A DNA stretch of 64,000 nt from Flavobacteriales bacterium. GTDB lineage: Bacteria; Bacteroidota; Bacteroidia; Flavobacteriales; UBA7430. Both the position numbers and the translations under genes were made by a program. Position 1 is the first letter of the stretch, and the number at the start of each line of letters is the position of its first letter. Below, piece by piece: positions 2,151 through 17,735 of the stretch. The stretch covers positions 79,544-143,543 of the forward strand of contig CBFIGX010000005.1 of the NCBI GenBank assembly GCA_965662265.1, given 5' to 3'. Under the pieces are notes generated by a model. The model saw only the letters and a list, made by a program, of their open reading frames with translations, did no database searches and had not been told where the DNA came from.

Positions 2151-2612
2151 TTATAATCGTGAAGCCAAACGAATTTTGTCAAGTATATTATTCAAAAGCA
2201 CTTGTTCTTCGACGCTCAAGTTAATGACGTCTCTATTGAAGTCATCAACTAAAGCGTCGATATTCCGGAGCAATTCCTTCCCTTGTTTAGAAATACGAAT
2301 TAGCATTTGTCGTTTGTCTACAACATCTTGCTCCATAAGTACAAGCCCTCTTTTATTTAAGATAGCTAAGGTTCTGCTAGTATTAGGAGACTTGGATAAC
2401 ATTCGTGATTTGATATCATTTACCAGAATAGCCAAGCCATTTTGGCCTCTTAATATTCTAAGAATATTGTATTGTGGTTGTGTTAAATTATATGGTCGCA
2501 TCAGCTCAATAAACTTCGTGTTTAAAAAGGAGGAAGTAAATAAAATGTTTACAAACGACTTCTCACTTAAGGTTCTAAAACCGCGAGACTGGATTTCTTC
2601 TTCTATACTCAT
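2151..2612 (-). CDS. MarR-family transcriptional regulator (153 aa from the internal ATG)
   Basis: MSIEEEIQSRGF...MRPYNLTQPQYNILRILRGQNG..ILVNDIKSRMLSKSPNTSRTLAILNKRGLVLMEQDVVDKRQMLIRISKQGKELL matches the MarR winged-helix pattern. The 27 codons upstream in the track ORF are AT-rich promoter-like DNA. Confidence 0.8.
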   Translation of the reverse strand: MSIEEEIQSRGFRTLSEKSFVNILFTSSFLNTKFIELMRPYNLTQPQYNILRILRGQNGLAILVNDIKSRMLSKSPNTSRTLAILNKRGLVLMEQDVVDKRQMLIRISKQGKELLRNIDALVDDFNRDVINLSVEEQVLLNNILDKIRLASRL

Positions 2613-2908: not shown

Positions 2909-3325
2909 ATGAAAGAGGTCTATGTAATAAGACGCGAACGATTCAATTCTGCCCACCGATTATTTAATCCGGCTTGGGATGATGCTAAAAATGAAGCTGT
3001 TTTCGGCAAATGCGCCAACAAAAATTGGCACGGACACAACTACGAGTTGTTTGTTACCGTCAAAGGTCCTATTGACGAAGACACTGGTTATGTGATTGAT
3101 ATGAAAGTATTGAGTGACATAATCAAAACTAAGATTAGCAACAAGATGGATCACAAAAACTTAAATCTTGAAGTGGACTTTTTAAAAGATAAGATTCCAA
3201 CAGCAGAGCATATTGCCGTGGCTATTTACGAAGAGTTAGATGAAGCACTCAAGGCCATCAATAAAACCCTGCACGGTGTAAAATTATACGAAACAGAAAA
3301 CAATTATGTAGAATATTATGGATAA
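2909..3325 (+). CDS. 6-pyruvoyl-tetrahydropterin synthase (eukaryote-like PTPS type rather than QueD)
   Basis: MKEVYVIRRERFNSAHRL...FGKCANKNWHGHNYELFVTVKGPIDEDTGYVIDMKVL...DHKNLNLEV...KLYETENNYVEYYG. The Cys-x5-HGH spacing and overall similarity resemble animal PTPS. E. coli QueD has Cys-x3-HGH. The ATG at 2909 is preferred over the TTG at 2876. Confidence 0.85.
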   Translation: MKEVYVIRRERFNSAHRLFNPAWDDAKNEAVFGKCANKNWHGHNYELFVTVKGPIDEDTGYVIDMKVLSDIIKTKISNKMDHKNLNLEVDFLKDKIPTAEHIAVAIYEELDEALKAINKTLHGVKLYETENNYVEYYG

Positions 3326-4013
3326 AATATCACCTAAAAATGCACACGTTATAAGTCTTAACCCAGAACTTAAAAATTTAGGTTATGCAGACGGCCAGCA
3401 CATTAATGGGCCACTAAGCTCAGAAGATAAAACCAAAATGATAGAGCGAGCTGCATTGAAGTTTGGAGAATTCTTACATGAACTAGGCTGTGACTGGAAA
3501 AACGACCCTAACTCTAAAGATACACCAACAAGAGTAGCTAAGGCTTACGTTAATGATTTGTGGGCGGGGCGGTATGATAGTTTTCCTAAAATTACCACTT
3601 TTCCTAATGAAGAATACGACGGAATTATTTTTGAAGGCAACATCCCCATTGTTTCAATGTGTTCGCACCACCACCAAACAATTACTGGTAAAGCACACAT
3701 TGCTTACATTCCAAAAATAAATTCCAAAATTATTGGTTTGAGTAAACTCAATAGAATTGTAGAGCACTACGCCAGAAGAGGTGCAATACAAGAAAATTTA
3801 ACCGTTCGTATTCACGATTCAATCCATAGGATTATTGAAGATAATCGGGGTGTTGCAGTGATGATTGAAGCTGGCCATAATTGTGTTCAATGTAGAGGGG
3901 TGAAGCACTTTGGAACCAACATGAAGACCTCAAAGTTATCTGGAGAATTTATGGGAAAAGACAAAACTCGCCATGAGTTTTATGAGTTTATCAAGCAGTC
4001 TATTCAGCATTAA
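3318..4013 (+). CDS. folE: GTP cyclohydrolase I (FolE)
   Basis: Contains ...PIVSMCSHHHQTITGKAHIAYIP..KIIGLSKLNRIVEHYARRGAIQENLT... It overlaps the PTPS stop by 8 nt. Confidence 0.92.
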   Translation: MDKISPKNAHVISLNPELKNLGYADGQHINGPLSSEDKTKMIERAALKFGEFLHELGCDWKNDPNSKDTPTRVAKAYVNDLWAGRYDSFPKITTFPNEEYDGIIFEGNIPIVSMCSHHHQTITGKAHIAYIPKINSKIIGLSKLNRIVEHYARRGAIQENLTVRIHDSIHRIIEDNRGVAVMIEAGHNCVQCRGVKHFGTNMKTSKLSGEFMGKDKTRHEFYEFIKQSIQH

Positions 4014-4034
4014 TAAACATTTGACAAATTCGGT

Positions 4035-4457
4035 ATGCTCCTTAAAAAAAGTTTAGATAGAAAAGAAAAAGAAAAGGTCATTAGAGAAATCTGTGGCTCA
4101 TCTTTTTCAATCATCCACAAATTTAAACAGCAATTGTTTGGCTCTCCGCGATATCGGCTCATCCAGCTGCACCCAGACGAAAAAAATGTGATGGAGTCTA
4201 ACGATGTCATATACTGTAACTTTGAGCTCAAAGAAAAGGGTATTGCCTTATACTTTAGATTTATGCAAGATGAATATGCACTTGTTGCACGATATAATCA
4301 AACCACCTTTCAAACAAATCAAAATCAGCTTGATCTTCAACTAGGTAATTATATTGTACAACTAGATATACTATCCCCGAAATCTCATCAAACTTTTGTA
4401 CAAAAGCTCATTAGCTCCAAGTCTGTTTATCTGGAAAGCACCCAAATACCTCTATAA
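4035..4457 (+). CDS. Hypothetical protein (140 aa)
   Basis: Called only from the ORF and its same-strand, tightly spaced context. I recognise no family motif. Confidence 0.4.
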   Translation: MLLKKSLDRKEKEKVIREICGSSFSIIHKFKQQLFGSPRYRLIQLHPDEKNVMESNDVIYCNFELKEKGIALYFRFMQDEYALVARYNQTTFQTNQNQLDLQLGNYIVQLDILSPKSHQTFVQKLISSKSVYLESTQIPL

Positions 4458-4469
4458 GTCTAATCATTA

Positions 4470-5618
4470 ATGCCAATTATTGTGAAAATTCTTGTTATTT
4501 CATTGAGTGCATTAGCTGTCGCCTACTTTACATTTCAATTTAATGGTATAGAAACCCCAAGTTATAGGGTCCTAAAAATAATAGACGATATTGAAATTAG
4601 GTCATACGACAAAATGATCTATGCCTCTTACACACCTAAAGGACAAAACAACAATTCATCCTTTAGAACTGTAGCTGATTTTATTTTTGGTAGCAATAAT
4701 AAGAATGAAAAAATTGCCATGACTGCGCCAGTAGTTATAAAGCCACACAATTCTTATGAAATGGCATTTATCATGCCGAAAAGCTTTACCTTGTCTAACC
4801 TTCCTAAGCCTAATAATGAAGCTGTAAAAGTGTATGAAGTACCAGCTACTACTAAAGCTGTGATTGGCTACTCTGGCTACACCAATAATAACAAAGAAAA
4901 AAAATACATTAGCCAACTTAAAAACAGACTCGAAAAAAACAATATTAAGCATTTAAACGATTTTGAGGTACAAGTGTACGACCCACCCTATAAACCTATT
5001 GGACGTAAAAATGAAATCACTGTAAGCCTTGTGATGGATACAATTTCTAATTTAAATAACATGGCAAATAAAGAAAAAAATAAGGCTCCTAACACCAACA
5101 CCATTCACCTAGGAGGTGGTTGCTTTTGGTGTATAGAGGCCGTATATGAAAATATAAAAGGAGTAGTTCAAGTTGTCTCAGGCTACTCTGGTGGAGATAA
5201 AGAAACCGCAAATTATAAAGACGTTTGTACAGGTAAAACAAAGCATGCCGAAGTATGTAAAATTACATATAATGTTGATGAGGTTTCTCTGGAAACCCTA
5301 CTTAATTTATTTTTCACATTTCATGACCCTACAACCAAAAATAGACAGGGAAATGATATAGGCCCTCATTACAGGTCTGTAATTTTTTATAAAAACGATG
5401 CAGAACAAACTACTGCTCAAAAAGTAATTGATGCCATGAACTCTGAGGTTTACGACAACAAGATAGTGACAGAATTATCGCCATTACAACATTTCTATGA
5501 GGCTGAAAATTACCATCAAGATTATTTTGCTAATAATAAATCACAATCTTATTGCCAGATAGTTATTGCCCCTAAAGTTGCCAAACTTAGAGCAAAATAT
5601 AGTGTCTTCAGCAAATAA
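4470..5618 (+). CDS. msrA: Fusion protein: N-terminal membrane anchor/signal + SOUL heme-binding-like domain + peptide-methionine (S)-S-oxide reductase MsrA
   Basis: The N-terminal half is ...ETPSYRVLKIIDDIEIRSYDKMIYASYT...FRTVADFIFGSNNKNEKIAMTAPVV..., which is SOUL/HEBP-like. The C-terminal half is IHLGGGCFWCIEAVYENIKGVVQVVSGYSGG...HAEVCKITYN...FHDPTTKNRQGNDIGPHYRS, the MsrA GCFWC motif. No stop separates them. Confidence 0.8.
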   Translation: MPIIVKILVISLSALAVAYFTFQFNGIETPSYRVLKIIDDIEIRSYDKMIYASYTPKGQNNNSSFRTVADFIFGSNNKNEKIAMTAPVVIKPHNSYEMAFIMPKSFTLSNLPKPNNEAVKVYEVPATTKAVIGYSGYTNNNKEKKYISQLKNRLEKNNIKHLNDFEVQVYDPPYKPIGRKNEITVSLVMDTISNLNNMANKEKNKAPNTNTIHLGGGCFWCIEAVYENIKGVVQVVSGYSGGDKETANYKDVCTGKTKHAEVCKITYNVDEVSLETLLNLFFTFHDPTTKNRQGNDIGPHYRSVIFYKNDAEQTTAQKVIDAMNSEVYDNKIVTELSPLQHFYEAENYHQDYFANNKSQSYCQIVIAPKVAKLRAKYSVFSK

Positions 5619-5682
5619 TTTGACATATAAATTATGTACTATGAGGTCTTTTATATTTGGCTAAATTGATTAATTTAGACCA

Positions 5683-7428
5683 ATGACTAGTCCCAAGGAA
5701 ACTTATGAGAGCAACGCCTTAATACAGCGCTTGCCAAAACATCTAAAGCAGTTTATTAAACCGCAGCACTATGAGCAATATACTTGCATAGATCAGGCTG
5801 TTTGGCGATATGTGATGCGAAGAAATGTACACTACTTGCCACAGGTAGCGCACGAATCTTACCTAGAAGGTTTAAAAAAAACGGCAGTAGAAATAGATTC
5901 GATACCAAGCATGTACGGTATGAATCGTATACTAAAAGAAATAGGCTGGGCTGCTGTAGCTGTTGATGGATTTATCCCACCAAATGCTTTTATGGAATTT
6001 CAAGCCTACAAAGTACTCGTTATTGCATCAGACATAAGACAACTTAAACATATTGAATATACACCTGCTCCAGACATATTGCATGAAGCAGCTGGACATG
6101 CTCCAATAATAGCAAATCCAGACTATGCGGAATACCTACGTCGTTTGGGAGCTATAGGCGCCAAAGCCATACTATCCAAACATGATATAGAAGTATACGA
6201 AGCCGTTCGTAAGTTATCTTTTCTTAAAGAAGCAAAAAATAGTTCTGTTGAAGCGCTAGAAAAAGCAGCCGATAAGGTGGAAAAACTTCAAAATAAAAAG
6301 GTGGCCTTGTCTGAAATGGCCCAGGTGCAAAACTTACAGTGGTGGACTGTAGAATATGGCTTAATAGGAGAAATGGATTCTCCAAAGATTTATGGAGCTG
6401 GTCTGCTTTCTTCTATTGGCGAAAGCAAGTCTTGCTTAGAAAATCATGTTAACAAAATCCCCTACTCTGCCGATGCCTCACAACAGACTTTTGACATCAC
6501 AAAACCTCAGCCTCAGCTGTATGTGGCAAATGATTTTTCAAAACTCATGGAGGTATTGGAACAATTTGCCAATACTCTCAGCTTAAGAAAAGGAGGAACT
6601 TCAGGTCTTCATAGACTTATCGATTCCGCTTGTGTTGGAACTATCGAAATTAATACTGGACTTCAAATTTCTGGTATATTTTCAGAAATGATATGCAATG
6701 AAGATAACCAAGTAGTTTATTATATGACAAAAGGTCCCACCGCACTTTCTTACCGAGAAAAGGAACTTATTGGTCATGGTGTAACTTATCATAAACATGG
6801 CTTTAGCTCGCCACTGGGTAAACTGAAAAACATTAATTTGGCAATAGAAGATATGGGGCCATACGATTTAAAAGCATATAATTTTTACGATAACAAATGG
6901 CTTTCCTTTGAGTTTGAAAGTGGCGTTAAAGTTGAAGGACTTAATATTACTGGTATTAGAAATTTACAAGGTAAGCTGATGCTTATTCAATTAAAATCCT
7001 GTACGGTAACTTATAAAAATCGTGTATTATTTAAACCCGAATACGGCACTTACGACATGGCTATTGGGTGTGATATCGTTTCTGCTTTTGCTGGTAGTGC
7101 AGACCCAGATTCATTCCCTAATTTGTATCAAGCTTCTACTCTCTCTAGTAATAAAGAAATTTCAAACCGTTTGGATAAAGAGTTAGAAAATTTGTATCAA
7201 AAAATAAGAAACGCTAGAACAGGACAAGAAATCAACACAAATGAACTAACTATTCTTTGGACAACTATTCAAAATAAATATCCACACGAATGGCTACTTA
7301 TGCTGGAGCTCATTGAAGTTTCTGATAATGCCTTACTCAATAAAAGTATTGCATCTGAACTTAACAACATAGCTAATAATCAACCTCACTTAAAATCACT
7401 TATTAAAGACGGATTAGAATTACTCTAA
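5683..7428 (+). CDS. phhA: Aromatic amino acid (phenylalanine-4-) hydroxylase, long Bacteroidota form with ~280-aa C-terminal extension
   Basis: LHEAAGHAPIIANPDYAEYLRRLG and WWTVEYGLIGE...KIYGAGLLSSIGE match the HExxGH and E iron-ligand blocks of biopterin-dependent hydroxylases. Confidence 0.8.
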   Translation: MTSPKETYESNALIQRLPKHLKQFIKPQHYEQYTCIDQAVWRYVMRRNVHYLPQVAHESYLEGLKKTAVEIDSIPSMYGMNRILKEIGWAAVAVDGFIPPNAFMEFQAYKVLVIASDIRQLKHIEYTPAPDILHEAAGHAPIIANPDYAEYLRRLGAIGAKAILSKHDIEVYEAVRKLSFLKEAKNSSVEALEKAADKVEKLQNKKVALSEMAQVQNLQWWTVEYGLIGEMDSPKIYGAGLLSSIGESKSCLENHVNKIPYSADASQQTFDITKPQPQLYVANDFSKLMEVLEQFANTLSLRKGGTSGLHRLIDSACVGTIEINTGLQISGIFSEMICNEDNQVVYYMTKGPTALSYREKELIGHGVTYHKHGFSSPLGKLKNINLAIEDMGPYDLKAYNFYDNKWLSFEFESGVKVEGLNITGIRNLQGKLMLIQLKSCTVTYKNRVLFKPEYGTYDMAIGCDIVSAFAGSADPDSFPNLYQASTLSSNKEISNRLDKELENLYQKIRNARTGQEINTNELTILWTTIQNKYPHEWLLMLELIEVSDNALLNKSIASELNNIANNQPHLKSLIKDGLELL

Positions 7429-7511
7429 TTAAAAAAGTCTTAAAGCTTCTCTTTTTGAATATTAACATTCGTTAATTCCAGATTAACACCTGTATTTCAG
7501 ATCTTTATATA

Positions 7512-7547
7512 TTTTGTATAATATATTTTATAAATTTCTATACAAAA
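7512..7547 (+). promoter_or_regulatory. Copy 1 of the inverted-repeat element TTTTGTATAA-N-TATACAAA (18-bp spacer), upstream of the photolyase operon
   Basis: Sequence is ttttgtataatatattttataaatttctatacaaaa. It contains TTTG and TAAATTTC, close to the Bacteroidota -33 TTTG and -7 TAnnTTTG promoter boxes. It lies 86 nt upstream of the ATG at 7631. Confidence 0.5.
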
Positions 7548-7630
7548 ATTATTTTCTATGCTTAGAATCTCGTAATTTTAAGGGTGTTGAAAATGAAAAA
7601 GTGTGTTAAGAAACAGGTTACACCTCATTT

Positions 7631-7909
7631 ATGAAAACTTTAAGCTTAGAACAAATAGACCGAATCATTGAAATGGCTTGGGAAGATCGAACCCCATTCG
7701 AAGCCATAAACATTCAATTCAATATGTCTGAATCTGAAGTCATAAAACTAATGAGAAAGACTCTAAAAGAAAGCTCTTTCAAATTATGGCGAAAGCGAGT
7801 GCATACTGGCGTAAGTAAAAAACACAGTAAAAAAAGAAGTGAAGAAATAAAGAGATTTAAATGCAGCAGACAGAAGTCTATATCGAACAACAAGATATCG
7901 AAACGGTGA
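7631..7909 (+). CDS. TIGR03643 / DUF2805 family protein (cryptochrome-associated small protein)
   Basis: MKTLSLEQIDRIIEMAWEDRTPFEAINIQFNMSESEVIKLMRKTLKESSFKLWRKRV matches my recollection of the DUF2805 core (IIEMAWEDRTPFEAI...SFKLWRKRV). Confidence 0.7.
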   Translation: MKTLSLEQIDRIIEMAWEDRTPFEAINIQFNMSESEVIKLMRKTLKESSFKLWRKRVHTGVSKKHSKKRSEEIKRFKCSRQKSISNNKISKR

Positions 7910-8997
7910 GCTTTCCCACAAATATCGACATCATCTTAAAGCGTATTTCATCTATAGAACCGATTTCTTATGGATCGACAAGGAATTTTAAAGACGGAGC
8001 AGTTACCTATCTAGGTCCGTATATCTCTCGAGGAGTAATTTCTACCAAAAAGGTGTATGATCATATCAAAACATTAGATTTAAGATGGGATAAATGTGAA
8101 AAGCTAGTTCAAGAACTTGCATGGAGAGATTATTGGCAGCAAGTATGGTGTGTGAAAAAAAAATGGATTTTTAACGACTTCAAACATTCTCAACCCGACG
8201 TAATATCTCATCAAATGCCTAGTGCAATAATACATGCTAATACTGGTATCGAGGCAGTAGACACAGCAATTAATGATCTGTATACAACCGGATATATGCA
8301 TAATCACATGCGTATGTATGTGGCTTCAATTTGCTGCAATATAGCTCGGTGTCATTGGAGTGTTCCAGCAAAATGGATGTATGCACACCTAAAAGATGGT
8401 GATTTAGCTAGTAATCATTTAAGTTGGCAGTGGGTTGCTGGAAGTAATTCCTTCAAGAAATATTATGCAAATCAAAGTAATATCAACAAATATTTTGAGA
8501 GCAATCAAAGTGGCACTTTTTTAGACTACTCTTATGAAGATTTACCAAATATAAACATCCCAAAAATACTAAAAGAAACATCAGATTTTAAACTAAAAAC
8601 TGATGTAACAGGTATTGACAAACCAACACTATTAAACGGTAAAGAGACTCTTGTATACACTTATTATAACCTGGACCCCTTTTGGTATAGAAATACAGAA
8701 ATACAAAGAGTTTTACTATTAGAGCCTTCGATATTTGAAACATATCCAGTAACAAAAAAATGCCTGGATTTTACTCTTGAATTAGCAAAAAACATAAAAG
8801 ATATTAAGATTGTTGTAGGAGAATTTAAAGACTTACAAAACAGCATTCCTAACAGTAAACTTATCTATAAAGAACACCCGCTTTTCGAACACTATTCAGG
8901 GCAGCAAGAAAACAGAGAGTGGCTGAGCTCAACTCGTGGTTACTACAGATCTTTTTTCTCATTTTGGAAAAAATGCAAAAAAGAAATCAAATGGTAA
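7861..8997 (+). CDS. Atypical photolyase/cryptochrome-family protein: FAD-binding domain at the N-terminus, alpha/beta-like region at the C-terminus
   Basis: Residues ~35-215 read [25 protein letters not shown]...[12 protein letters not shown]...[29 protein letters not shown]...[17 protein letters not shown], which are FAD_binding_7 blocks. The start could be ATG 7861 (49-nt overlap) or GTG 7906 (GTGA overlap with the upstream stop). Confidence 0.7.
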
Positions 8998-10478
8998 AAG
9001 AGCCTCTAAATATTGTGTGGTTAAAACGAGATTTAAGACTTCAAGATCATGCTCCTTTTTTTTATGCTGAATCCTCTAATTTCCGCTACTTACCTATCTA
9101 TATTTATGAACCTTCATTACTGATCCACCCAGACAGTTCTATGAGGCACCATCAATTTGTTTACCACTCTTTGCTTGAAATGAACACACACCTAAAGGCG
9201 TTTCAACGAGAGATTATGATATTTCATAAAGAAGCATCTGAGGTGTTCGAGATGCTTTCCAAAAAATTCCATATCAATACTGTATATTCCTACCAAGAAT
9301 CTGGAATTCGTAAAAGCTGGGAGAGAGATAATAAAATAGGACACTTATTCAAAATTAAAAATATTGTTTGGCGTGAATTCCAAAGAGATGGCATCTTAAG
9401 AGGTATTAAAAACAGAAATAATTGGGATAAGCAATGGCATAAATATATAAGCGACTCCTGTTTTGAAAACAAATATTCTCAAAATGGATATAAAAGCTTC
9501 AAAAACCCTTACCCGCTAAATGCAACATTTAAGTCCAAACTTATAGAATACCCAAGCGCATTTCAAAAAGCAGGTCAAAATTTTGCCTATGCCTATTTAA
9601 AATCTTTTTGTGAAGATCGAGGAAAACACTATGCTAAAAACATATCTAAACCTTTAGAAAGTAGAAGGTCATGTGGTCGATTGTCTCCCTATATAGCTTG
9701 GGGTAATATAAGTATAAGACAAGTTTATCAGTATGTAAAACTACATCCAAACTTCCATCATTACAAGCAAAGTTTTAGAGGTTTATTAACCCGCCTAAAA
9801 TGGCATTGTCATTTTATACAAAAGTTTGAAGTAGAATGTGACTATGAAACGAGGTGTATAAATAGAGGTTATGAGAGCATGAGTTACTCTAACAATCCTG
9901 AACTAATAAAGGCATGGAAAAATGGTAATACTGGCTTCCCTCTTATAGATGCTTGTATGCGATGTGTAAAGGAAACGGGTTGGATAAACTTTAGAATGCG
10001 TGCTATGCTAGTCTCTTTATTTTGTCATCACTTCGACTGCAATTGGAAAAAAGGAGTTTACCACCTTAGTCGTTTATTTTTAGATTACGAACCGGGTATT
10101 CACTTCACTCAATTTCAGATGCAGGCAGGTACAACTGGAATAAATACAATAAGAATGTATAACCCTGTTAAACAATCTAAAGATCACGACCCTCAAGGTA
10201 TTTTCATAAAAAGATGGGTAGAGGAATTGAAAGAGGTACCCGTAAACTTTATTCATGAACCTTGGACTATGACCGCTATGGACAAAGCATTTTTGGGTAT
10301 TAATGTTGACTACCCTCTACCAGCAATTAACCTTGTAGAAAGTGGTAGTAAAGCACGAAAAAAAATATGGGGACATCGAAAAAATGAACTTGTAAAAATT
10401 GAGAATCAAAGAATTATAAAACTACATACCAGAGCAAATGCTTCTAAGAAAAACAGATATTCACAACCTAGAACGTAA
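8991..10478 (+). CDS. Photolyase/cryptochrome-family flavoprotein, divergent subfamily (full alpha/beta + FAD-binding architecture)
   Basis: [16 protein letters not shown] (N-terminal alpha/beta domain) ... [21 protein letters not shown] ... [12 protein letters not shown] ... [31 protein letters not shown]...[39 protein letters not shown] chose ATG 8991, which sits inside the upstream ...AAATGGTAA stop context. ATG 8973 and ATG 8919 are also possible. Confidence 0.75.
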
Positions 10479-11070
10479 ATACAGATTAAACTTAATCAAT
10501 TCGATAACTGGTATTAAACCAGCGAATTTAGTTGGCACAACTTCATTAGAAGGTCGAGATAATTTAGCTATATTTTCTTCCTTAGTTCACCTAGGGTCCA
10601 ACCCTGCACAACTTGGGCTTGTAATGCGACCACAAACACATGTTAAGAAAGATACCTATACAAATATTACAAATACTGGGTATTACACTATAAACCACAT
10701 CACAGAATCGTTTACTAAAAAAGCCCATTACACCTCTGCTAAACTCGAACATGAAAGTTCTGAATTTGACGTAATGCATATCAAAAGAGAACACATTAAT
10801 GGATTTAAAGCACCCTTTGTGGCATCTAGTCCAATTAAGATAGGTATGAGTCACTTAGAAACTCTAAAGCTGCCAAATGGTTGCTTATTTATTGTTGGAG
10901 AAATTGTATTGATACAATATCCAGATGAAGTAGTGAATCATTTAGGGCAAGTAAAATTAGACCTATACAAAGGAGTAGGAATTGGCGGGTTAAACAATTA
11001 TTATCAACTAAAAAAAATAGCCTCCTACCCTTATGTTCGTGTTGATGAAATTCCTGATTTTAATGACTAA
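10438..11070 (+). CDS. Flavin reductase-like (FMN-binding split-barrel) family protein
   Basis: [51 protein letters not shown] resembles Bacteroidota flavin reductase family proteins. It overlaps the upstream gene by 41 nt. Confidence 0.55.
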
Positions 11071-11200
11071 GAGGCAATTAGAAGTTAAGATATGTGTGGT
11101 ATGTAATCTACCCTATAGCTGGCGAAAAAAATGGGAACGAGACTGGGAAAAAGTAAAATATTGTAGCGAACGCTGTAGACGAAACAAAAATAAAAAATGA
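11063..11200 (+). CDS. DUF2256 zinc-ribbon protein (45 aa), not in the supplied ORF track
   Basis: My translation is [45 protein letters not shown]. It carries CxxC...WRKKW..W..VKYCSxxCR, the DUF2256 signature as I recall it. It has an 8-nt overlap upstream and an ATGA overlap with the next gene. Confidence 0.75.
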
Positions 11201-12714
11201 ATGCCGTAAACATTATTTTTCCACATCAACTATTTGAACGTAGTGTTCTATTAGAAAATGAATTCATTATTTATCTAATTGAAGAACATTTGTTTTTCAA
11301 AGAACTTTCATTTCACAAGAAAAAAATTGCTTTTCATAGGGCAAGTATGAAAAGCTATGAGCATTATCTAAAAAGTATAGGGAAGTCTGTTTATTACATT
11401 GAATCTAGCCATCAATTGGCTGATATTAGAAATTTCAAACATGAAATAGATAAGCAAGGTATCGAACAAGTCAATGTTATAGATCCTACTGATAATTGGC
11501 TACAGAAACGACTTAAAAATACTACCAAAAAATGTAGTTTAAAAGTATTCGATAGTCTTCATTTTTTGAATAGCACAGAGGATTTAAGTACTTTTTTTAG
11601 GTCCGAAAAAAAATCTTTTTTTCAAACCACTTTTTACAAAGCACAGAGAAAAAAACACAAACTACTCCTTGACTCTGATCAAAAACCTTTGGGAGGCAAA
11701 TGGACTTATGACGCAGAAAATCGAAAAAAATATCCGAAAAGTAAAACACCTCCCCAAGTAACTCGCCCAAAACCATCGAAATTTTGGGATGAAGCAGTTA
11801 CATACACCGAAACACATTTTACTTGCAACCTAGGTCAACTAGATGAAAAATGCTTTTATCCTATAGATTTTAAAGGAGCTCGAATGTGGCTAAGTGATTT
11901 TTTAAAAACAAGATTTTATGATTTTGGTGCCTATGAAGACGCAATGGTGAAAGAGAATTATATCTTACACCACAGTCTTCTGTCTCCACTTATGAATTCT
12001 GGGTTATTAACACCAAGGGAAGTCATAAACTCTAGTATTAAATATGCCGAGACAGAGAACATACCAATCAATTCTTTAGAAGGCTTTGTGCGACAGGTTA
12101 TTGGGTGGCGAGAATTTATACGAGGAATGTATATCTGTAAAGGCTCTTTTTCGAGGACTCATAATTTCTGGAAATTTAACCATCCTATACCACAATCATT
12201 GTACCGTGGCACCACAGGTATCGAGCCATTAGATCATAGTATAAAAACAGCACTAAAAACTGGTTACTGCCACCATATCGAACGTCTAATGATTTTAGGG
12301 AACTTCATGCTACTTTGCGAATTTAATCCTAATGGAGTTTACAAATGGTTTATGGAACTTTTTATAGATGCCTACGATTGGGTGATGGTTCCTAATGTAT
12401 ACGGAATGTGTTTATTTGCTGATGGAGGTACCTTTGCTACAAAACCATATATTGGAGGCTCTAATTATATTAAAAAAATGAGTAATTACAAACGTGGATC
12501 TTGGGAGAAATGTTGGGATGGCTTATTTTGGCGCTTTGTTATTAAACAAAAATCATTTTTTAAATCAAATCCTAGAACATCAATGCTAGCGTATAGCCTA
12601 GATAAAATGACACCTGAAAAGCAGGAAATACACTTGCAACATGCCAATAAGTTTATAAATAATAATTTTGTTTGGGACGACGCTATGGTTATTGAAGAAC
12701 ATGCAACGAACTAG
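11197..12714 (+). CDS. CryPro / FeS-BCP-type ((6-4) photolyase PhrB/CryB-like) photolyase-related protein
   Basis: NIIFPHQLF..., [67 protein letters not shown] and [16 protein letters not shown]...[16 protein letters not shown] all fit the COG3046 'photolyase-related protein' pattern. Confidence 0.8.
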
Positions 12715-12735
12715 TATAATATTAAATCAAAAAAA

Positions 12736-13614
12736 ATGAATCGAAACACATTTTTAAAAAATAGCTTATTCACTACTCTAGCAGCACTTTTTACAAGTAA
12801 AGTGAGTATCGGAAAATCAGTATTACCTGAAAACTCTACCTATTCTCTACTCTCAAAACAAGTAGGCTTTAACCATTTACCTAATAAGGAACAAAAAACA
12901 ATGAACACAGTATTACATAAATCCAACACACGTGGTCATGCCAACCATGGCTGGCTTAACACCCACCACAGTTTTAGCTTTGCCAATTACCATAACCCAG
13001 AACGAATGAGATTTGGTGTTCTTAGAGTTCTTAACGACGATCGTGTTGAGGCCGGTAGAGGATTTGGGACACATTCACATGACAATATGGAAATTATCTC
13101 TATACCACTAGAAGGCGATTTAGAACACAAAGACAGCATGGGAAATACAGCCATAATAAAACAAGGAGATATACAGGTAATGAGTGCGGGAACAGGAATA
13201 TCACATTCTGAATTCAATAAAAATACCGATAAAGCAGTCAAGTTTCTTCAAATATGGTTGTTCCCAAACAAAATAAATGTAGTTCCTCGCTACGATCAAA
13301 TTGCGTTAAACCGTTTAGAAAAAGAAAACGAATTGTATCAAATACTATCGCCAAATAAAAATGATGATGGCGTATGGATACATCAGGATGCCTGGTTTCA
13401 TATGGGTAAATATACTAAACAACATTCTGAAACTTACGCTCTAAACAAAGAAGGAAATGGGGCGTATATCTTTATACTTAAAGGTCAGGCTGTGGTAAAT
13501 GGACAGTCGTTAACCGACAGAGATGGGATGGGTGTATGGAATACCCAAATGCTAAAACTAGAGGCTTCAACAGGAACTGAGCTTCTTGTTATGGAAGTTC
13601 CTATGAATATTTAA
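12736..13614 (+). CDS. Pirin family protein (bicupin), with a 55-aa N-terminal extension resembling an export signal
   Basis: RGHANHGWLNTHHSFSFANYHNPERMRFGVLRVLNDDRVEAGRGFGTHSHDNMEIISIPLEGDLEHKDSMGN is the classic pirin N-terminal cupin. The N-terminus is MNRNTFLKNSLFTTLAALFTSKV. An alternative start is M56 at 12901. Confidence 0.85.
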   Translation: MNRNTFLKNSLFTTLAALFTSKVSIGKSVLPENSTYSLLSKQVGFNHLPNKEQKTMNTVLHKSNTRGHANHGWLNTHHSFSFANYHNPERMRFGVLRVLNDDRVEAGRGFGTHSHDNMEIISIPLEGDLEHKDSMGNTAIIKQGDIQVMSAGTGISHSEFNKNTDKAVKFLQIWLFPNKINVVPRYDQIALNRLEKENELYQILSPNKNDDGVWIHQDAWFHMGKYTKQHSETYALNKEGNGAYIFILKGQAVVNGQSLTDRDGMGVWNTQMLKLEASTGTELLVMEVPMNI

Positions 13615-13625
13615 ACAGATATTAT

Positions 13626-14912
13626 ATGTATAAAGAAGATATTTCTGTTATATGGTTCAGAAGAGACTTAAGACTATCAGACAATCACGCCTTGTCTGAA
13701 GCGTTAAAAGGTAATTTCCCAGTGCTTCCTTTATTTATTTTTGACGAAGATATTACGGATAACCTTCCAGTTAACGATCCTAGAATTAACTTTATCCATG
13801 GCCAACTCGAATTACTAGCAAGCCGTTTATTTGAATTTGATAGTGGTATATATTGCAAAAAGGGCAAAGTCAAAAACGTATGGCAAGAACTTATATCTAA
13901 ATACAACATCAAAACTGTATATGCCAATGAAGATTACGAACCTTATGCAAAAAAAAGAGATGAAGAGATTGATCAACTATTAGCTACTTATGGCTCAAAA
14001 CTTCAATTATTTAAAGATCAAGTCATATTTGCCAAAGACGAAGTATTAAAAGCAGATAATAAGCCCTATACGGTATACACTCCGTATAAAAACAAATGGC
14101 TTAGCAATTTTAATAATTCCATGCTTGAAGCATATAAGTGGCCAGAAAATCCTAAGTTCTTTAAATTATCTTATTCAATTCCTAGCCTAGAATCCATGGG
14201 CTTTAAATCCTCATCAATTCAGGTAAAAGATTACGATATTTCGAAGCTAGATGAGTACGAGGCACAACGCAACTTTCCGGGTACAGACAAGACGAGCTAT
14301 CTCTCACCACATTTAAGATTTGGAACCATAAGTGTTAGATATATTTTTGCTCAAACCAAGCAACATGAAACCTTTAGAAACGAATTGATATGGCGAGAAT
14401 TTTTCATGCAAATCTTGTATCACTTTCCCAAGGTGGTAAATTCAAATTTTAAATCTAAATACGACCGAATTCCATGGCGCAATAATGAGCTAGAGTTTGA
14501 AAAATGGAAGGTTGGACAAACTGGATATCCAATGGTAGATGCAGGTATGCGTCAGTTAAACGCAACGGGCTATATGCATAACAGGGTTCGTATGGTAGTT
14601 GCCGGATTTTTATGTAAGCATCTCTTAATAGACTGGCGTTGGGGCGAAGCATACTTTGCAGAAAAATTGCTCGACTACGAATTATCATCCAATAACGGTA
14701 ACTGGCAATGGGCTGCCGGAACAGGCTGTGATGCAGCTCCCTATTTTAGAGTGTTTAACCCTACAGAACAGGTTAAAAAATTTGACAAACAATTGGTATA
14801 TATCAAAAAATGGGTGCCAGAATATGAAAGCTTAGAGTATCTTTCTCCTCTGGTAGAACATAAGATGGCAAGACTAAGAGCTATTAACACATACAAAACT
14901 GCCCTTTTGTAA
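13626..14912 (+). CDS. phr: Deoxyribodipyrimidine (CPD) photolyase, class I-like
   Basis: VIWFRRDLRLSDNHAL..., LSPHLRFGTISVR, LIWREFF, and GQTGYPMVDAGMRQLNATGYMHNRVRMVVAGFL..DWRWGEAYFAEKLLDYELSSNNGNWQWAAGTGCDAAPYFRVFNPTEQ closely parallel the E. coli Phr blocks. Confidence 0.88.
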   Translation: MYKEDISVIWFRRDLRLSDNHALSEALKGNFPVLPLFIFDEDITDNLPVNDPRINFIHGQLELLASRLFEFDSGIYCKKGKVKNVWQELISKYNIKTVYANEDYEPYAKKRDEEIDQLLATYGSKLQLFKDQVIFAKDEVLKADNKPYTVYTPYKNKWLSNFNNSMLEAYKWPENPKFFKLSYSIPSLESMGFKSSSIQVKDYDISKLDEYEAQRNFPGTDKTSYLSPHLRFGTISVRYIFAQTKQHETFRNELIWREFFMQILYHFPKVVNSNFKSKYDRIPWRNNELEFEKWKVGQTGYPMVDAGMRQLNATGYMHNRVRMVVAGFLCKHLLIDWRWGEAYFAEKLLDYELSSNNGNWQWAAGTGCDAAPYFRVFNPTEQVKKFDKQLVYIKKWVPEYESLEYLSPLVEHKMARLRAINTYKTALL

Positions 14913-14965
14913 TTTAGGTAGTTAATATTGGATGAATAATAGCTACTTAAGATAATATTCATTAG

Positions 14966-15000
14966 TTTTGTATAATATTATTGTATAATTTCTATACAAA
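14966..15000 (+). promoter_or_regulatory. Copy 2 of the inverted-repeat element TTTTGTATAA-N-TATACAAA (18-bp spacer)
   Basis: Sequence is ttttgtataatattattgtataatttctatacaaa. By hand alignment, 29 of 35 positions are identical to the 7512 copy. It lies 33 nt upstream of the ATG at 15032. Confidence 0.5.
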
Positions 15001-15031
15001 TTAATTGAATCTAATTTAATAAGCTACGTCT

Positions 15032-15205
15032 ATGTTTTTTTTCGGCAAATCATCTAAAACAAAAAAATTAAGAGCACAATACAAAAAGAAAATGGAGGAA
15101 TCCTTTAAGATGTCTAAGATAGACCGTAAAGCCAGTGACAAATTAATGATGGAAGCGGAAGAGATTATGCAAAAGCTTAAAAAAGAAGAAGCTAAAGACA
15201 AGTAA
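15032..15205 (+). CDS. Small lysine/glutamate-rich protein (57 aa), Lacal_2735-like family; not in the ORF track
   Basis: My translation is MFFFGKSSKTKKLRAQYKKKMEESFKMSKIDRKASDKLMMEAEEIMQKLKKEEAKDK*. It resembles the small conserved Bacteroidota protein family with pattern MFG..KK....KL...Y..L..E......RK.SD....EA. The antisense track ORF 15016..15201 is probably spurious. Confidence 0.5.
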   Translation: MFFFGKSSKTKKLRAQYKKKMEESFKMSKIDRKASDKLMMEAEEIMQKLKKEEAKDK

Positions 15206-15238
15206 TCACACTATTTATCATCAATTTCCAATACTCGT

Positions 15239-15784
15239 ATGCAACAATTTCTGCTATTCATAGCGCTCATTTTTATGCCAATTCCCTCTTCTAACCCTAT
15301 TACGATATTCGATTTCAAAAACTCTTCTGAACCAGAAAAGTGGTATATTGTCAACGATGATGTTATGGGTGGTGTTTCTACTTCTAAAATAAAAATAAAC
15401 AAGGAAGGGCATGCTGTATTTTCAGGACGTGTATCTACTGCTAACAATGGTGGGTTTGCTTCTGTACGTTACAGATTTGACCCGATATCTACTATTGGTT
15501 GTGCCAAAATATTGTTAAGAGTTAAAGGGGATGAAAAACCTTATCAATTAAGAGTAAAATCAAGTGCATCTGATTACTATTCTTATGTCTGTTCATTTGA
15601 AACATCTAAGGACTGGGAGTTAATAGAAGTTAATTTGAAAGATATGTATCCCAGCTTCCGTGGAATGAAATTACCCATGGGAAATTTTGATGAGACGTCT
15701 ATTGAAGAGCTATCTATATTGATTGGTAACAAGAAAGATGAATCATTTGAGTTATTCATCGATCATATTAAATTAGGAAATTAA
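15239..15784 (+). CDS. CIA30 (complex I intermediate-associated protein 30-like) family protein
   Basis: WYIVNDDVMGGVSTSKIKINKEGHAVFSGRVSTANNGGFASVRYRF is the characteristic CIA30 N-terminal block. Confidence 0.75.
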   Translation: MQQFLLFIALIFMPIPSSNPITIFDFKNSSEPEKWYIVNDDVMGGVSTSKIKINKEGHAVFSGRVSTANNGGFASVRYRFDPISTIGCAKILLRVKGDEKPYQLRVKSSASDYYSYVCSFETSKDWELIEVNLKDMYPSFRGMKLPMGNFDETSIEELSILIGNKKDESFELFIDHIKLGN

Positions 15785-15848: not shown

Positions 15849-16760
15849 TTACTTTATATGTTTTTCTACACGACCGTTGCTATATAAGTAAAATAATAAC
15901 TGCCCTGACATATGCTGATGATGCTCTCTTCCCAATATATCAATCATCTTAATCGGACTTACATCCTCATGAACTAATTCTTCGTATAGACCCACATTAT
16001 TCCAGCTTATTGGGTAGCTACAAACTACATTAGCTGATCCTGCAAAGAGCCCTTCTACCACACAAAGTTCTCCAGTAAAAGGCATTTCTAAAGCTTCGGA
16101 TACAATTAATGCCCTTGTTTCACCCATCCCTGGCCCGGTTATAGCATAAACGTTTCCAGCAGATTCTAATGTTTCGGTTGCTATGGTTTCACCCATGGCA
16201 TCTCTTAACATGAGTCCAGCGTATGGAATAGAATAATTATTAAAAGAAGTTTCTATAGTTACAAACAGGGTATCAAAACTTATCTCAGATGATAGGGCTA
16301 TTGGGAGTTGGGCATTTAAACTTATGGAGTCGCAAAAATTAAAACATTCAGAGCAACACTGACCATCAAGCTCTTGCCAGATACCATTACAAGGAATTCC
16401 CATTTCTTCAGCACAATCAATGATTATTTCTACAAACGAACCATTGCTAAGGCATTCTCCTGTTTCACAAGGGTTATTAGGGTTTTCCCAAAAGCCTGCT
16501 TGATAAATTTCTATACCCGAGGTAGACGTGCAAAGTGGATCATTCGTTGAGGTACATTCTCCTGGTGAGTATTCATATATACTAGAGCATTCCGCAAAGC
16601 CATAATTGCTATATGTAACTCCATCGCAACCGCAAACAGGGTTATACTCCATAGTGGCCATGCAGCCTGGAATGAGAACAGCTATACAAGAATCTATAGA
16701 CTGCGCTATCACAGAATGAGTGAGCAAAGACAAAAGGATTGAAAAAAGAACAGATTTCAT
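15849..16760 (-). CDS. Secreted Cys-rich protein with Kazal-like and VWC-like modules and a T9SS C-terminal sorting domain
   Basis: It has a signal peptide and CMATMEYNPVCGCDGVTYSNYGFAEC (Kazal-like PVCGxDGxTYxN). PCETGECLSNGSFVEIIIDCAEEMGIPCNGIWQELDGQCCSEC ends in the G-x-CC-x-x-C pattern of VWC/chordin-type modules. The C-terminal IKMIDILGRE....GQLLFYLYSNGRVEKHIK is a T9SS type-A-like tail. Confidence 0.6.
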   Translation of the reverse strand: MKSVLFSILLSLLTHSVIAQSIDSCIAVLIPGCMATMEYNPVCGCDGVTYSNYGFAECSSIYEYSPGECTSTNDPLCTSTSGIEIYQAGFWENPNNPCETGECLSNGSFVEIIIDCAEEMGIPCNGIWQELDGQCCSECFNFCDSISLNAQLPIALSSEISFDTLFVTIETSFNNYSIPYAGLMLRDAMGETIATETLESAGNVYAITGPGMGETRALIVSEALEMPFTGELCVVEGLFAGSANVVCSYPISWNNVGLYEELVHEDVSPIKMIDILGREHHQHMSGQLLFYLYSNGRVEKHIK

Positions 16761-16941
16761 ACAAATTCAATAATATGTTTAGGTCTAAATCTAGTTAAAA
16801 ATATAGAAGAATGTATACGATTTTAAAAAGATTATACATTTTGAGCTATCATAGAGCTTAATAAGAGATATACTAACCTATTATGGCAAAAAAACAGCAA
16901 CTAAAGTCGCTGTTTATCATTACTTACACATGTTCAAAGTC

Positions 16942-17238
16942 CTAATGATCGTGCTCTTCTCCACAGTGAACTTCGTTAGCGCTTCCAGGCAAAACCATTG
17001 ATGGTAAAGAATCGCCATCAACATCTAAATAAAGAGTATCCTGAATGGTATATCCAGTCTCTTCGATATCGTGTAAAGCATCTTCACAATACTCACCTAA
17101 CTCCATAAGCTCATATTCTGTTCCGTTTATATCTACTACAACATGACATTCAGCACATTCGTCTTCACTACACCCTACAAATAGAAATAATGAGAGAGAG
17201 GCTAAACACACTTTTAAATTTAAAAAATTACGTTTCAT
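16942..17238 (-). CDS. Small lipoprotein with Cys-rich N-terminus and His-rich C-terminal tail (candidate metal-binding protein)
   Basis: The lipobox is LFLFVGC. The mature N-terminus is CSEDECAECHVV and the C-terminus is EVHCGEEHDH*. Confidence 0.55.
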   Translation of the reverse strand: MKRNFLNLKVCLASLSLFLFVGCSEDECAECHVVVDINGTEYELMELGEYCEDALHDIEETGYTIQDTLYLDVDGDSLPSMVLPGSANEVHCGEEHDH

Positions 17239-17354: not shown

Positions 17355-17735
17355 ATGGGCATCAAAAGAAAAACAAAATCAGTAGACTTCATTCTAAACG
17401 AATTCCAAAAAGACAGAGAGGCCATCTCTGCCACAGATTTGGTACATAGACTAAGTAGTAATTTTAACAAAACAACTGTTTACCGTGTTTTGGAAAAACT
17501 AGAGCAAGACGGCACCTTACACTCCTTTACTGGGAAGAATTCTTCAAAATGGTACGCTAAATGTTATGGATGCAAAGCGGATAATCATATAGATGTGCAT
17601 CCTCATTTTGAATGTAGTGCTTGCGCTCAAGTAGAGTGTTTGGATGTTGAGATTAGCATCCCCACTGTTGCAGACAAGAAGATTAGCAAAGCAGCAGTGC
17701 TATTACAAGGTTTATGTAGCAATTGTCTGCATTAG
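17355..17735 (+). CDS. Fur-family metalloregulator (Zur/Fur-like)
   Basis: ISATDLVHRL....NKTTVYRVLEKLEQDGTLH is a Fur-type winged helix. HPHFECSACAQVECLD and GLCSNC supply the two CxxC pairs of the structural Zn site. Confidence 0.75.
   Translation: MGIKRKTKSVDFILNEFQKDREAISATDLVHRLSSNFNKTTVYRVLEKLEQDGTLHSFTGKNSSKWYAKCYGCKADNHIDVHPHFECSACAQVECLDVEISIPTVADKKISKAAVLLQGLCSNCLH

Follow-up and report, generated by a model that had tools for sequence, protein, structure and literature searches.

A photolyase-rich operon in a Flavobacteriales bacterium and its conserved partner genes

Eight genes on the + strand of a Flavobacteriales bacterium, four of them coding for proteins of the photolyase/cryptochrome family (CPF), follow each other with minimal or negative spacing within an analysed stretch of 64,000 nucleotides (hereafter called the window). 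This raises the question whether the array is a set of repair enzymes or, as the original prediction had proposed, a multi-component module for photoreception and repair. That the array amounts to more than its repair enzymes is treated here as a hypothesis, and nothing that we found shows either photoreception or a signal output.

Gene content and the four CPF proteins

On sequence grounds, the eight-gene operon (7631-14912) is confirmed as real. The open reading frames and all previously described junctions were reproduced exactly, and every family call was upheld by Pfam and NCBIfam. The operon carries genes for three different predicted DNA photolyases, for one photolyase-like protein devoid of repair residues, and for small helper proteins. 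It starts with a gene for a DUF2805/TIGR03643 protein of 92 aa (7631-7909), which is followed by CPF-1 (7861-8997, alternative start GTG 7906). The two genes share a GTGA overlap if CPF-1 starts at GTG 7906 and overlap by 49 nt if it starts at ATG 7861. This start is ambiguous: most homologues have about 363 aa, yet the conserved K-C codons of DUF2805 create an upstream ATG that could serve as well. CPF-2 (8991-10478) overlaps CPF-1 by 7 nt, with its ATG at 8991 inside AAATGGTAA. A 41-nt overlap connects CPF-2 to a split-barrel flavin reductase (Flavin_Reduct, 10438-11070), whose start at 10438 is backed by an N-terminus conserved from residue 1 in another locus (L059). The overlap with the DUF2256 gene (11033-11200) is 38 nt with ATG 11033 and 8 nt with the alternative start ATG 11063. 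An ATGA overlap (11197-11200) leads to the CryPro-type gene (11197-12714). Gaps of 21 nt and 11 nt precede the genes for a pirin (12736-13614) and a class I-type CPD photolyase (13626-14912), respectively.

The four CPF paralogs had been expected to differ in architecture or subfamily, and they do represent four distinct known subfamilies: NewPHL/SPL, NewCRY-like, CryPro (6-4)-type, and class I-type CPD photolyase.

CPF-1, originally described as putatively permuted, is confirmed by domain and residue mapping as the domain-inverted NewPHL/SPL form, with the catalytic FAD domain first and the Z-domain last. This form was described in 2020-21 (PMC7736829; PMC8476157); NewPHL (Emmerich et al., 2020, PMC7736829) and SPL subgroup Ba (Xu et al., 2021, PMC8476157) are one class, and CPF-1 is Ba-like. 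Residues 37-200 of CPF-1 align to photolyase residues ~227-400, the N-terminal alpha/beta antenna domain being absent; Pfam FAD_binding_7 covers only residues 83-206, and the Foldseek matches are photolyase catalytic domains. The C-terminal alpha/beta Z-domain (residues ~263-378) appears as a beta-alpha-beta fold in the predicted structure (residues ~263-375). Within it, W354, G360, Y361, S364, and F365 are invariant among 16 sequences, and F366 is found in at least 90% of them. The equivalents of the CPD-site residues E274, W277, N341, M345, and W384 are kept, as are W359 and W382 of the Trp triad, while W306 is replaced by His. CPF-1 thus shares with the published proteins the N-terminal catalytic domain and missing N-terminal antenna domain, a C-terminal Z-domain of ~120-150 aa with a conserved Trp and an xFF motif, and the conserved CPD-site residues and last two triad Trp. 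Fe-S cysteines are not evident in either, and both co-occur with class I and (6-4) photolyases. The motif itself differs, being SFF in CPF-1 and GFF in the published proteins. We propose that CPF-1 is a photolyase for CPDs in single-stranded DNA.

CPF-2 had been singled out as a divergent member without the repair residues, and this was borne out. Pfam recognizes both the DNA_photolyase and the FAD_binding_7 domain. Relative to E. coli photolyase, residue mapping yields E274R, N341F, M345A, N378H, W382F, W384M, and W306Y, and 19 homologues invariably carry these substitutions, among them E274R and N341F. As judged from these residues, CPF-2 is a NewCRY-like protein in which the CPD-binding and electron-transfer (Trp-triad) positions are replaced, so that it would have to do something other than repair. 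The NewCRY subfamily, which includes VcCry2 according to PMC7736829, likewise consists of bacterial two-domain CPF proteins without the equivalents of E274 and N341. The changes N378H, W382F, and W384M go beyond the NewCRY definition, and CPF-2 is likened to NewCRY by description. PMC7736829 makes the case that signalling is the only role that appears feasible for NewCRY.

The next CPF gene had been called CryPro/FeS-BCP-like, of which the CryPro part stood and the FeS part did not. PF04244, the DPRP-type N-terminal domain, is found at 5.7e-55, and matches to solved members have E-values from 1e-59 to 1e-80 (7YKN, 4e-80; 4DJA, 1.7e-70). The catalytic motif is kept as HHIERLM, in a segment aligned to GYAHHIQRLM. 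The DPRP domain and HHIxRLM are shared by the FeS-BCP/CryPro (6-4) photolyases (Agrobacterium PhrB, 4DJA; Rhodobacter CryB, 3ZXS; Vibrio cholerae, 7YKN). Compared with PhrB, in which C350, C438, C441, and C454 bind the [4Fe-4S] cluster, the protein lacks three of the four ligands: Pro stands in place of C350, a deletion removes the CxxC segment, and an aligned Cys is left only at the last position. The sampled Bacteroidota CryPro clade shares this loss, the ligands being absent from all 57 scored Bacteroidota homologues with a readable site. Its alignment indicates that the protein is a member of the CryPro clade but not an "FeS" one, and we propose repair of (6-4) photoproducts as the predicted function of this Fe-S-less enzyme. 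A role of DUF2256 as a stand-in for the missing cluster was ruled out, as the cysteines are gone from the Bacteroidota homologues with or without an adjacent DUF2256 gene.

The product of the last gene has both domains (Pfam, NCBIfam) and keeps the 14 mapped catalytic, FAD-binding, and Trp-triad positions of E. coli Phr except for a conservative D374E. It appears to be a canonical class I-type CPD photolyase. Its scores are below the NCBIfam equivalog cut-offs (322.9 vs. 506 bits for PRK10674, 342.6 vs. 884.6 bits for the 8-HDF type), and they neither separate class I from class III nor fix the antenna type.

Accessory genes in other Bacteroidota

A comparison of the gene neighbourhood with that of 80 other Bacteroidota loci showed a recurring core order, DUF2805-NewPHL-[NewCRY]-[flavin reductase]-DUF2256-CryPro, in which adjoining genes usually overlap. 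DUF2805 is present in 46 loci, DUF2256 in 55, and the flavin reductase in 27. The distance from DUF2805 to NewPHL (median, -4 nt) does not exceed 30 nt in 45 of 46 cases, nor does that from the flavin reductase to DUF2256 in 23 of 24. The overlaps of a few nt between DUF2805 and NewPHL and between DUF2256 and CryPro are fixed across families and orders. Because order and overlaps recur in this way, gene context indicates that these three accessory genes are truly linked to CPF genes beyond this genome, as had been claimed. In Chryseobacterium and Aequorivita, too, DUF2805 is associated with CPF genes or else with DUF6435 and the flavin reductase. The almost obligatory placement of DUF2805 5' of NewPHL (46 of 80 loci) is absent from PMC7736829 and PMC8476157, neither of which treats the gene neighbourhood.

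The claimed linkage failed for pirin. Neither pirin nor the class I photolyase is part of the cluster in any of the 80 loci; both are present only in a relative with 97% identity, so that the class I gene does not belong to a conserved module either. By this distribution, the two genes are lineage-specific additions to the operon. Pirin is a YhhW-like/quercetinase-type bicupin (Pirin and Pirin_C_2), of which residues 60-289 align to residues 4-229 of E. coli YhhW (6e-61). The pirin domain begins only at about residue 60, after an atypical, Tat/Sec-like N-terminal extension of 55 residues, and the 21-nt gap to the CryPro-type gene is valid only if this extension is translated. Translation is favoured by the pattern of changes in the 97%-identical relative (four synonymous and three conservative changes, zero indels). 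Pirin thus probably carries an export signal, and as a seemingly exported protein it could not directly partner cytoplasmic CPF proteins.

The DUF2805 assignment is clear (110.6 bits vs. a cut-off of 66.55 for TIGR03643; 115.6 vs. 22.5 for Pfam). The protein consists of a helical domain (residues 6-59), with four helices in the AlphaFold model, and a disordered basic tail. In a Foldseek search against PDB, helix-turn-helix (HTH) domains came out on top, but none of the matches fell below E=3; a profile search against PDB sequences gave no match, and the sole HTH hint from Pfam is NirdL-like_HTH (E=0.056). Fusions to CPF proteins were encountered neither among the top 120 homologues nor among the best 150 of 1745 cluster representatives, which all have 59-178 aa. 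DUF2256 (68.9 bits vs. a Pfam cut-off of 25) is a basic, zinc-ribbon-like peptide with four cysteines (CxxC...WRKKW...CxxxC; consensus C.vC...WRKKW...YCSerC across 57 sequences). A literature search found no paper linking it with photolyase. The nearest solved relative of the flavin reductase is 3FGE. Most plausibly, DUF2805 and DUF2256 would be nucleic-acid-binding helpers, and the flavin reductase would supply or maintain reduced flavin.

It might be argued that the genes are functionally independent and only co-regulated, with photolyases that act alone and with small ORFs, flavin reductase, and pirin as general photo-oxidative-stress genes which share a promoter. This would agree with the lineage-specific presence of pirin and the class I photolyase, with the widely varying composition (22 different architectures among the 80 loci), with the MsrA and other stress genes in the neighbouring operons, and with Aequorivita, where DUF2805, DUF6435, and the flavin reductase are found together although no CPF gene is adjacent. 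However, besides the fixed overlaps, DUF2805 shows 75-85% identity across Bacteroidota compared to ~60% for its CPF neighbour. Such overlaps and such conservation suggest stoichiometric co-production and not loose co-regulation, and we consider functional independence rather unlikely.

A palindrome shared by three adjacent operons

Three adjacent + strand operons (2910-15784) contain 15 genes in all, with the photolyase operon in the middle, and each is preceded by TTGTATA-N18/19-TATACAA. The copy at 7514-7545 (N18), 86 nt upstream of the DUF2805 ATG, overlaps an AT-rich TAAATTTC box resembling the Bacteroidetes -7 promoter box. A second copy (14968-14999), with a third TTGTATA inside it, lies 33 nt upstream of DUF6435. 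A third copy (N19; 2866-2898) precedes the PTPS ATG (position 2910) by 12 nt. The downstream operon (15032-15784) codes for DUF6435 (15032-15205) and a CIA30-domain protein (15239-15784; PMC5932025, Table S4); homologues of both adjoin CPF genes, DUF2805, or flavin reductase in other genomes. The upstream operon (2910-7428) codes for PTPS, GTP cyclohydrolase I, orf140, a SOUL-MsrA fusion, and a 581-aa aromatic amino acid hydroxylase.

Four matches to the palindrome occur in the window where 0.17 are expected, and a generalised form with an 18-nt spacer has 10 matches across all loci where 0.35 are expected. It is located 0-90 nt upstream of CPF operons (L005, L083, L039, L040), of DUF6435 (L059, L087), and of proteorhodopsin-blh (L058). 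The exact form is confined to the closest Flavobacteriales relatives and a looser TTGTnTA form to a handful of other loci; in most of the 80 loci, neither is found within 300 nt of the cluster start. From position and recurrence we infer that the palindromes are candidate operators over likely promoters. They suggest one repressor-controlled light regulon, in which the 15 genes would probably be co-induced.

A MarR-family regulator (2151-2612, - strand), divergent from the PTPS operon, may by its position be the nearest candidate repressor, on weak evidence. A compact palindrome, TTGTATATACAA (2682-2693), lies in the intergenic region common to both. MarR homologues elsewhere (~40% identity) are not adjacent to CPF genes, and the other motif-bearing loci have none. 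A TetR_C_23 protein that heads some clusters was rejected as regulator: only a C-terminal COQ9-like domain is detected in it, its gene invariably accompanies that of an ABC1 kinase and occurs in few loci, and the two are more likely a lipid- or quinone-binding pair. By eye, no relation between a 7-1-7 box of the Fur-like gene product (17355-17735) and the palindrome is apparent. Rfam detected no riboswitch or other RNA family in the window.

We consider it reasonably likely that the locus is a light/UV-damage response operon with three complementary photolyases, a NewCRY-like protein, coupled accessory genes, and co-regulation across three operons. The photolyases would be co-expressed with complementary substrates: duplex CPDs for the class I enzyme, single-stranded CPDs for NewPHL/SPL, and (6-4) photoproducts for CryPro. 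The NewCRY-like flavoprotein, as fourth CPF product, would have a non-repair task. DUF2805, DUF2256, and flavin reductase would be evolutionarily fixed, translationally coupled CPF partners, and pirin and the class I gene would be additions confined to this lineage. In the light, the 15 genes would probably be switched on together by release of a dimeric or tetrameric repressor from the DNA.

Could the operon regulate as well as repair? The NewCRY-like or another CPF protein might sense blue light and pass the signal on to DNA, and perhaps to the palindrome itself, through DUF2805 (as an HTH-like protein) and/or DUF2256. The loss of the CPD-binding residues and the proximal Trp from CPF-2, the signalling argument for NewCRY cited above, the tight translational coupling, and a nearly invariant DUF2805 with its basic tail and weak HTH neighbours would fit such a module. 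Against this, CPF-2 occurs in merely 18 of the 80 loci, DUF2805 and DUF2256 persist without it, and the HTH similarity of DUF2805 is not significant. Two of the loci that bear the motif, L040 and L059, lack DUF2805 within 10 kb, and in Vibrio cholerae the blue-light transcriptome was unchanged after deletion of all three CPF genes (PMC5241685). We thus regard signalling as quite improbable. Very doubtful, in our opinion, are two further proposals: that DUF2805 and DUF2256 are dedicated stoichiometric DNA-binding subunits of NewPHL/CryPro-type enzymes, or that DUF2805 and the NewCRY-like protein form a flavin-based light switch acting on a TTGTnTA-N18-TAnACAA operator.

Relation to published light-associated clusters

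Earlier papers have described the four CPF subfamilies as well as light-associated clusters of photolyase genes in marine Flavobacteriia, so the locus does not represent a new type of system. A proximity cluster made up of photolyase-related genes is enriched in Flavobacteriia with proteorhodopsin, and the families that show a bias towards such genomes include DUF2805, flavin reductase, and CIA30 (Kumagai et al., 2018, PMC5932025). Such clusters have been reported as light-associated and light-induced (PMC5932025; bioRxiv 10.1101/2023.12.25.573297); in Dokdonia sp. MED134 the CPF operon, MsrA, proteorhodopsin, and a class I photolyase are light-induced. The Kumagai cluster and the Dokdonia three-gene operon (MED134_10201-10211) resemble the present locus in their clustered CPF genes with a CryPro (DPRP) member, and Dokdonia also in a nearby MsrA gene, which is light-induced along with its CPF operon. 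They differ in that Dokdonia has three CPF genes including a DASH-type gene, compared to four including NewPHL here, and in that only the present operon contains pirin and class I photolyase. The palindrome preceding three operons is new in this analysis; no description of it or of the three-operon layout was found in the searched literature.

The locus is thus an unusually complete example of a known cluster type. It makes testable what DUF2805, DUF2256, and flavin reductase contribute to the NewPHL and CryPro enzymes, whose defining papers left gene context unconsidered, what purpose a NewCRY-type protein without repair residues serves, and which repressor reads the shared palindrome. This palindrome appears to place photolyases in one regulon with pterin/MsrA stress genes and, as seen in another genome, with proteorhodopsin. 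If the DUF2805/NewCRY-like light switch were true, it would constitute a previously unrecognised CPF-dependent light-signalling pathway in Bacteroidota, controlling photolyases, proteorhodopsin, and stress genes.

Operon structure and its conservation in other genomes

All eight plus-strand open reading frames of the photolyase/cryptochrome family (CPF) operon (7631-14912), and each of the junctions quoted in the original prediction, were found in the sequence. DUF2805 (7631-7909) and CPF-1 (7861-8997) share a GTGA overlap at 7906-7909, which extends to 49 nt when CPF-1 is started from ATG 7861. CPF-2 (8991-10478) starts with ATG 8991, within AAATGGTAA, and overlaps the flavin reductase gene (10438-11070) by 41 nt (10438-10478). 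The overlap between the flavin reductase gene and DUF2256 (11033-11200) is 8 nt (ATG 11063) or 38 nt (ATG 11033), and an ATGA overlap at 11197-11200 connects DUF2256 to the CryPro gene (11197-12714). Gaps of 21 nt and 11 nt precede the pirin gene (12736-13614) and the last photolyase gene (13626-14912), respectively. Pfam and NCBIfam assign the first three genes to DUF2805/TIGR03643, FAD_binding_7 alone (CPF-1), and DNA_photolyase plus FAD_binding_7 (CPF-2). The remaining genes match, in order, Flavin_Reduct, DUF2256, DPRP, Pirin plus Pirin_C_2, and DNA_photolyase plus FAD_binding_7. The window has a uniform base composition, and Rfam detected no RNA families in it.

The TGA stop codon of an upstream open reading frame of 13 codons (MKKCVKKQVTPHL, 7593-7634) overlaps the DUF2805 ATG. 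In L081, a locus 97% identical to the window, the DUF2805 product is called with 104 aa, 12 residues longer, and would start at approximately the position of this short frame, which indicates that the frame may not be a conserved unit of its own. At the other end of the gene (7840-7909), the invariant Lys-Cys codons of the DUF2805 tail create, in the +2 frame, ATG 7861, a possible start of CPF-1. Such dual coding may partly explain the extreme conservation of this tail.

Species-representative genomes were scanned with an alignment of NewPHL, the family of CPF-1 (see below), and the proteins from the window were mapped onto the resulting 80 loci, which are mostly from Bacteroidota. DUF2805 is directly upstream of NewPHL in 46 of the 80 loci; DUF2256 is found in 55, CryPro in 53, the flavin reductase in 27, and CPF-2 in 18, while neither pirin nor the class I photolyase occurs in any of them. 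The gene order in these loci is invariably DUF2805-NewPHL-[CPF-2]-[flavin reductase]-DUF2256-CryPro, and three loci (L005, L026, L074) carry the complete six-gene core. Spacing is tight: the median gap from DUF2805 to NewPHL is -4 nt, and gaps of at most 30 nt were found for DUF2805 to NewPHL (45/46), NewPHL to CPF-2 (18/18), flavin reductase to DUF2256 (23/24), and DUF2256 to CryPro (31/38). The arrangement with pirin and the class I gene is repeated only in metagenome contigs which are 97% identical to the window. The original prediction had considered DUF2805, DUF2256, flavin reductase, and pirin to be hard-wired into one multi-component module. Across the 80 loci, this is supported for the first three, which are linked to CPF genes beyond this genome, and contradicted for pirin, which is not.

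Other layouts exist. In Chryseobacterium, a TetR_C_23-ABC1-DUF2256-CPF-CryPro cluster ends with DUF2805. In the Chryseobacterium locus L086 (4950-5102), the gene whose start is overlapped by DUF2256 is a two-domain CPF gene and not CryPro, and DUF2805 is at the operon end; this indicates that neither small protein is restricted to one CPF subfamily. In Aequorivita, DUF2805 lies between DUF6435 and flavin reductase, and there are no CPF genes in the vicinity. Several genera share a TetR_C_23 (COQ9-like) gene and an ABC1/UbiB-type kinase gene as the leading genes of CPF/DUF2805 operons (L039, 7834-9773; L063, 7809-9647; L085/L086, 2126-4651).

CPF and accessory proteins

Residues 37-200 of CPF-1 align to positions ~227-400 of solved photolyase chains, that is, only to the C-terminal catalytic domain, and are accompanied by an additional conserved C-terminal region of ~120 residues. 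This architecture has been described as NewPHL (PMC7736829) and independently as SPL (PMC8476157). Most members of SPL subgroup "Ba" are from Bacteroidetes, and a Cyclobacterium protein is among them; CPF-1 shows 57-59% sequence identity to two Cyclobacterium loci (L025, L079). The AlphaFold model of CPF-1 (pLDDT 79, pTM 0.82) has an all-helical N-terminal domain, for which Foldseek matches are photolyase catalytic domains, and a beta-alpha-beta C-terminal domain with only weak Rossmann-like matches, including phosphopantetheine adenylyltransferase and universal stress protein. When CPF residues are numbered by alignment to E. coli photolyase, CPF-1 retains E274, W277, N341, M345, W359, N378, W382, and W384 and has lost W306, exactly the pattern reported for SPLs (PMC8476157).

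The last photolyase gene retains every mapped E. coli residue, apart from the conservative change D374E, and, judged from its sequence, encodes a canonical class I-type enzyme. Its scores are under the NCBI equivalog cut-offs. CPF-2 carries the substitutions E274R, N341F, M345A, N378H, W382F, W384M, W306Y, and R226I, which are invariant in 19 homologues. In this it agrees with NewCRY as described in the literature, where E274 and N341 are lacking. The DPRP (CryPro) gene, in which the HH motif is intact, is closely related to bacterial (6-4) photolyases of known structure (4e-80 to 7YKN). Of the four Fe-S ligands, three are absent: Pro takes the place of C350, and the two cysteines of the CxxC pair are deleted. 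The same Pro and the same deleted segment are common to the whole sampled Bacteroidota CryPro clade (L001-L083).

DUF2805 shows 75-85% sequence identity across Bacteroidota and is thus far more conserved than the adjoining NewPHL (~60%). In the model of DUF2805, four helices (residues 6-59) are followed by a disordered basic tail, and its likeness to HTH domains is only suggestive. The best 150 of the 1745 representatives of this family are all small stand-alone proteins. The DUF2256 consensus is C.vC...WRKKW...YCSerC. The nearest solved relative of the flavin reductase is 3FGE, an uncharacterised split-barrel protein. Pirin is YhhW-like from residue 60 on, and its N-terminal 55 residues (MNRNTFLKNSLFTTLAALFTS..., 12736-12900) resemble a Tat/Sec signal and include the Tat-like motif RNTFLK as well as a hydrophobic segment. 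The fact that this N-terminal region differs from the 97% identical relative by four synonymous and three conservative changes, with no indels, indicates that the extension is probably translated and the protein probably exported. A TatC gene is present in the window (33353-34177).

A palindrome shared by three consecutive operons

A palindrome with perfect 7+7 arms, TTGTATA-N18-TATACAA, is found upstream of DUF2805 (7514-7545) and upstream of DUF6435-CIA30 (15032-15784) at 14968-14999. A version with N19 (2866-2898) is located 12 nt before the 6-pyruvoyl-tetrahydropterin synthase gene (PTPS). The palindrome thus heads three consecutive plus-strand operons. The window contains 4 matches versus 0.17 expected, a number reached by none of 100 shuffles. 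A shorter-spaced copy (15-nt spacer, 16812-16838) is upstream of a minus-strand gene for a Cys-rich secreted protein (15849-16760).

The tight upstream operon (2910-7428) codes for PTPS, GTP cyclohydrolase I, orf140, a SOUL haem-binding/MsrA fusion, and a 581-aa aromatic amino acid hydroxylase. It looks like pterin supply, hydroxylase, and protein repair beside the photolyase operon. The product of orf140 (140 aa, 4035-4457) has no Pfam family; a 39% identical homologue is the first gene of a CPF operon, directly after the palindrome, in another Flavobacteriales lineage (L083, 4593-5012; L009, 4599-5009).

In other genomes, the CPF operon (L005, L083/L009, L039, L040) or DUF6435 (L059, L087) is preceded, at a distance of 0-90 nt, by the same palindrome or by a variant with TTGTTTA/TAAACAA arms. 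With the 18-nt spacer there are 10 matches versus 0.35 expected, several of them from closely related contigs. In L058 (19139-20952), a gene pair for proteorhodopsin and beta-carotene dioxygenase (blh) has TTGTTTA-N17-TAAACAA 53 nt upstream, and the CPF cluster of that genome is 8 kb away. The spacer usually contains a TAAATTT-like box, which we take to resemble the Bacteroidetes -7 element. The palindrome may be a repressor operator that overlaps the promoter. The nearest candidate regulator is a MarR-family gene (2151-2612, minus strand), divergent from the PTPS operon; its candidacy has positional support only. A 12-nt palindrome, TTGTATATACAA (2682-2693), in which the same half-sites directly adjoin, is 70 nt upstream of the MarR ATG. 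A weak Fur-family regulator (17355-17735) has a small Cys/His-rich lipoprotein-like frame (16942-17238, minus strand) as its divergent neighbour, and this pair is probably a separate metal-response unit.

Relation to published work

Kumagai et al. (PMC5932025) describe a proximity cluster of photolyase-related genes, which is enriched in Flavobacteriia with proteorhodopsin. In their Table S4, the families with a bias towards genomes that carry rhodopsin include photolyase, DPRP, DUF2805, flavin reductase, and CIA30. In a transcriptome study of Dokdonia MED134, the genes reported as up-regulated in light include a CPF operon of three genes, an MsrA gene close to it, the class I photolyase, and proteorhodopsin (bioRxiv 10.1101/2023.12.25.573297). 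Because the gene set matches these light-induced genes, we infer that the palindrome-headed operons may form a light regulon. Gene neighbourhood is not mentioned in the NewPHL paper (PMC7736829), nor in the available text of the SPL paper (PMC8476157), and our literature search found no paper linking DUF2256 to photolyases.

The cluster is genuine and makes biological sense. All of its components belong to known families, and comparative genomics and transcriptomics have already revealed clusters of this kind; the palindrome shared across the three operons is a new observation. A photoreceptor role for the operon remains hypothetical. What the small proteins and the NewCRY-like protein do, and which regulator acts on the operons, can now be tested sharply at this locus.
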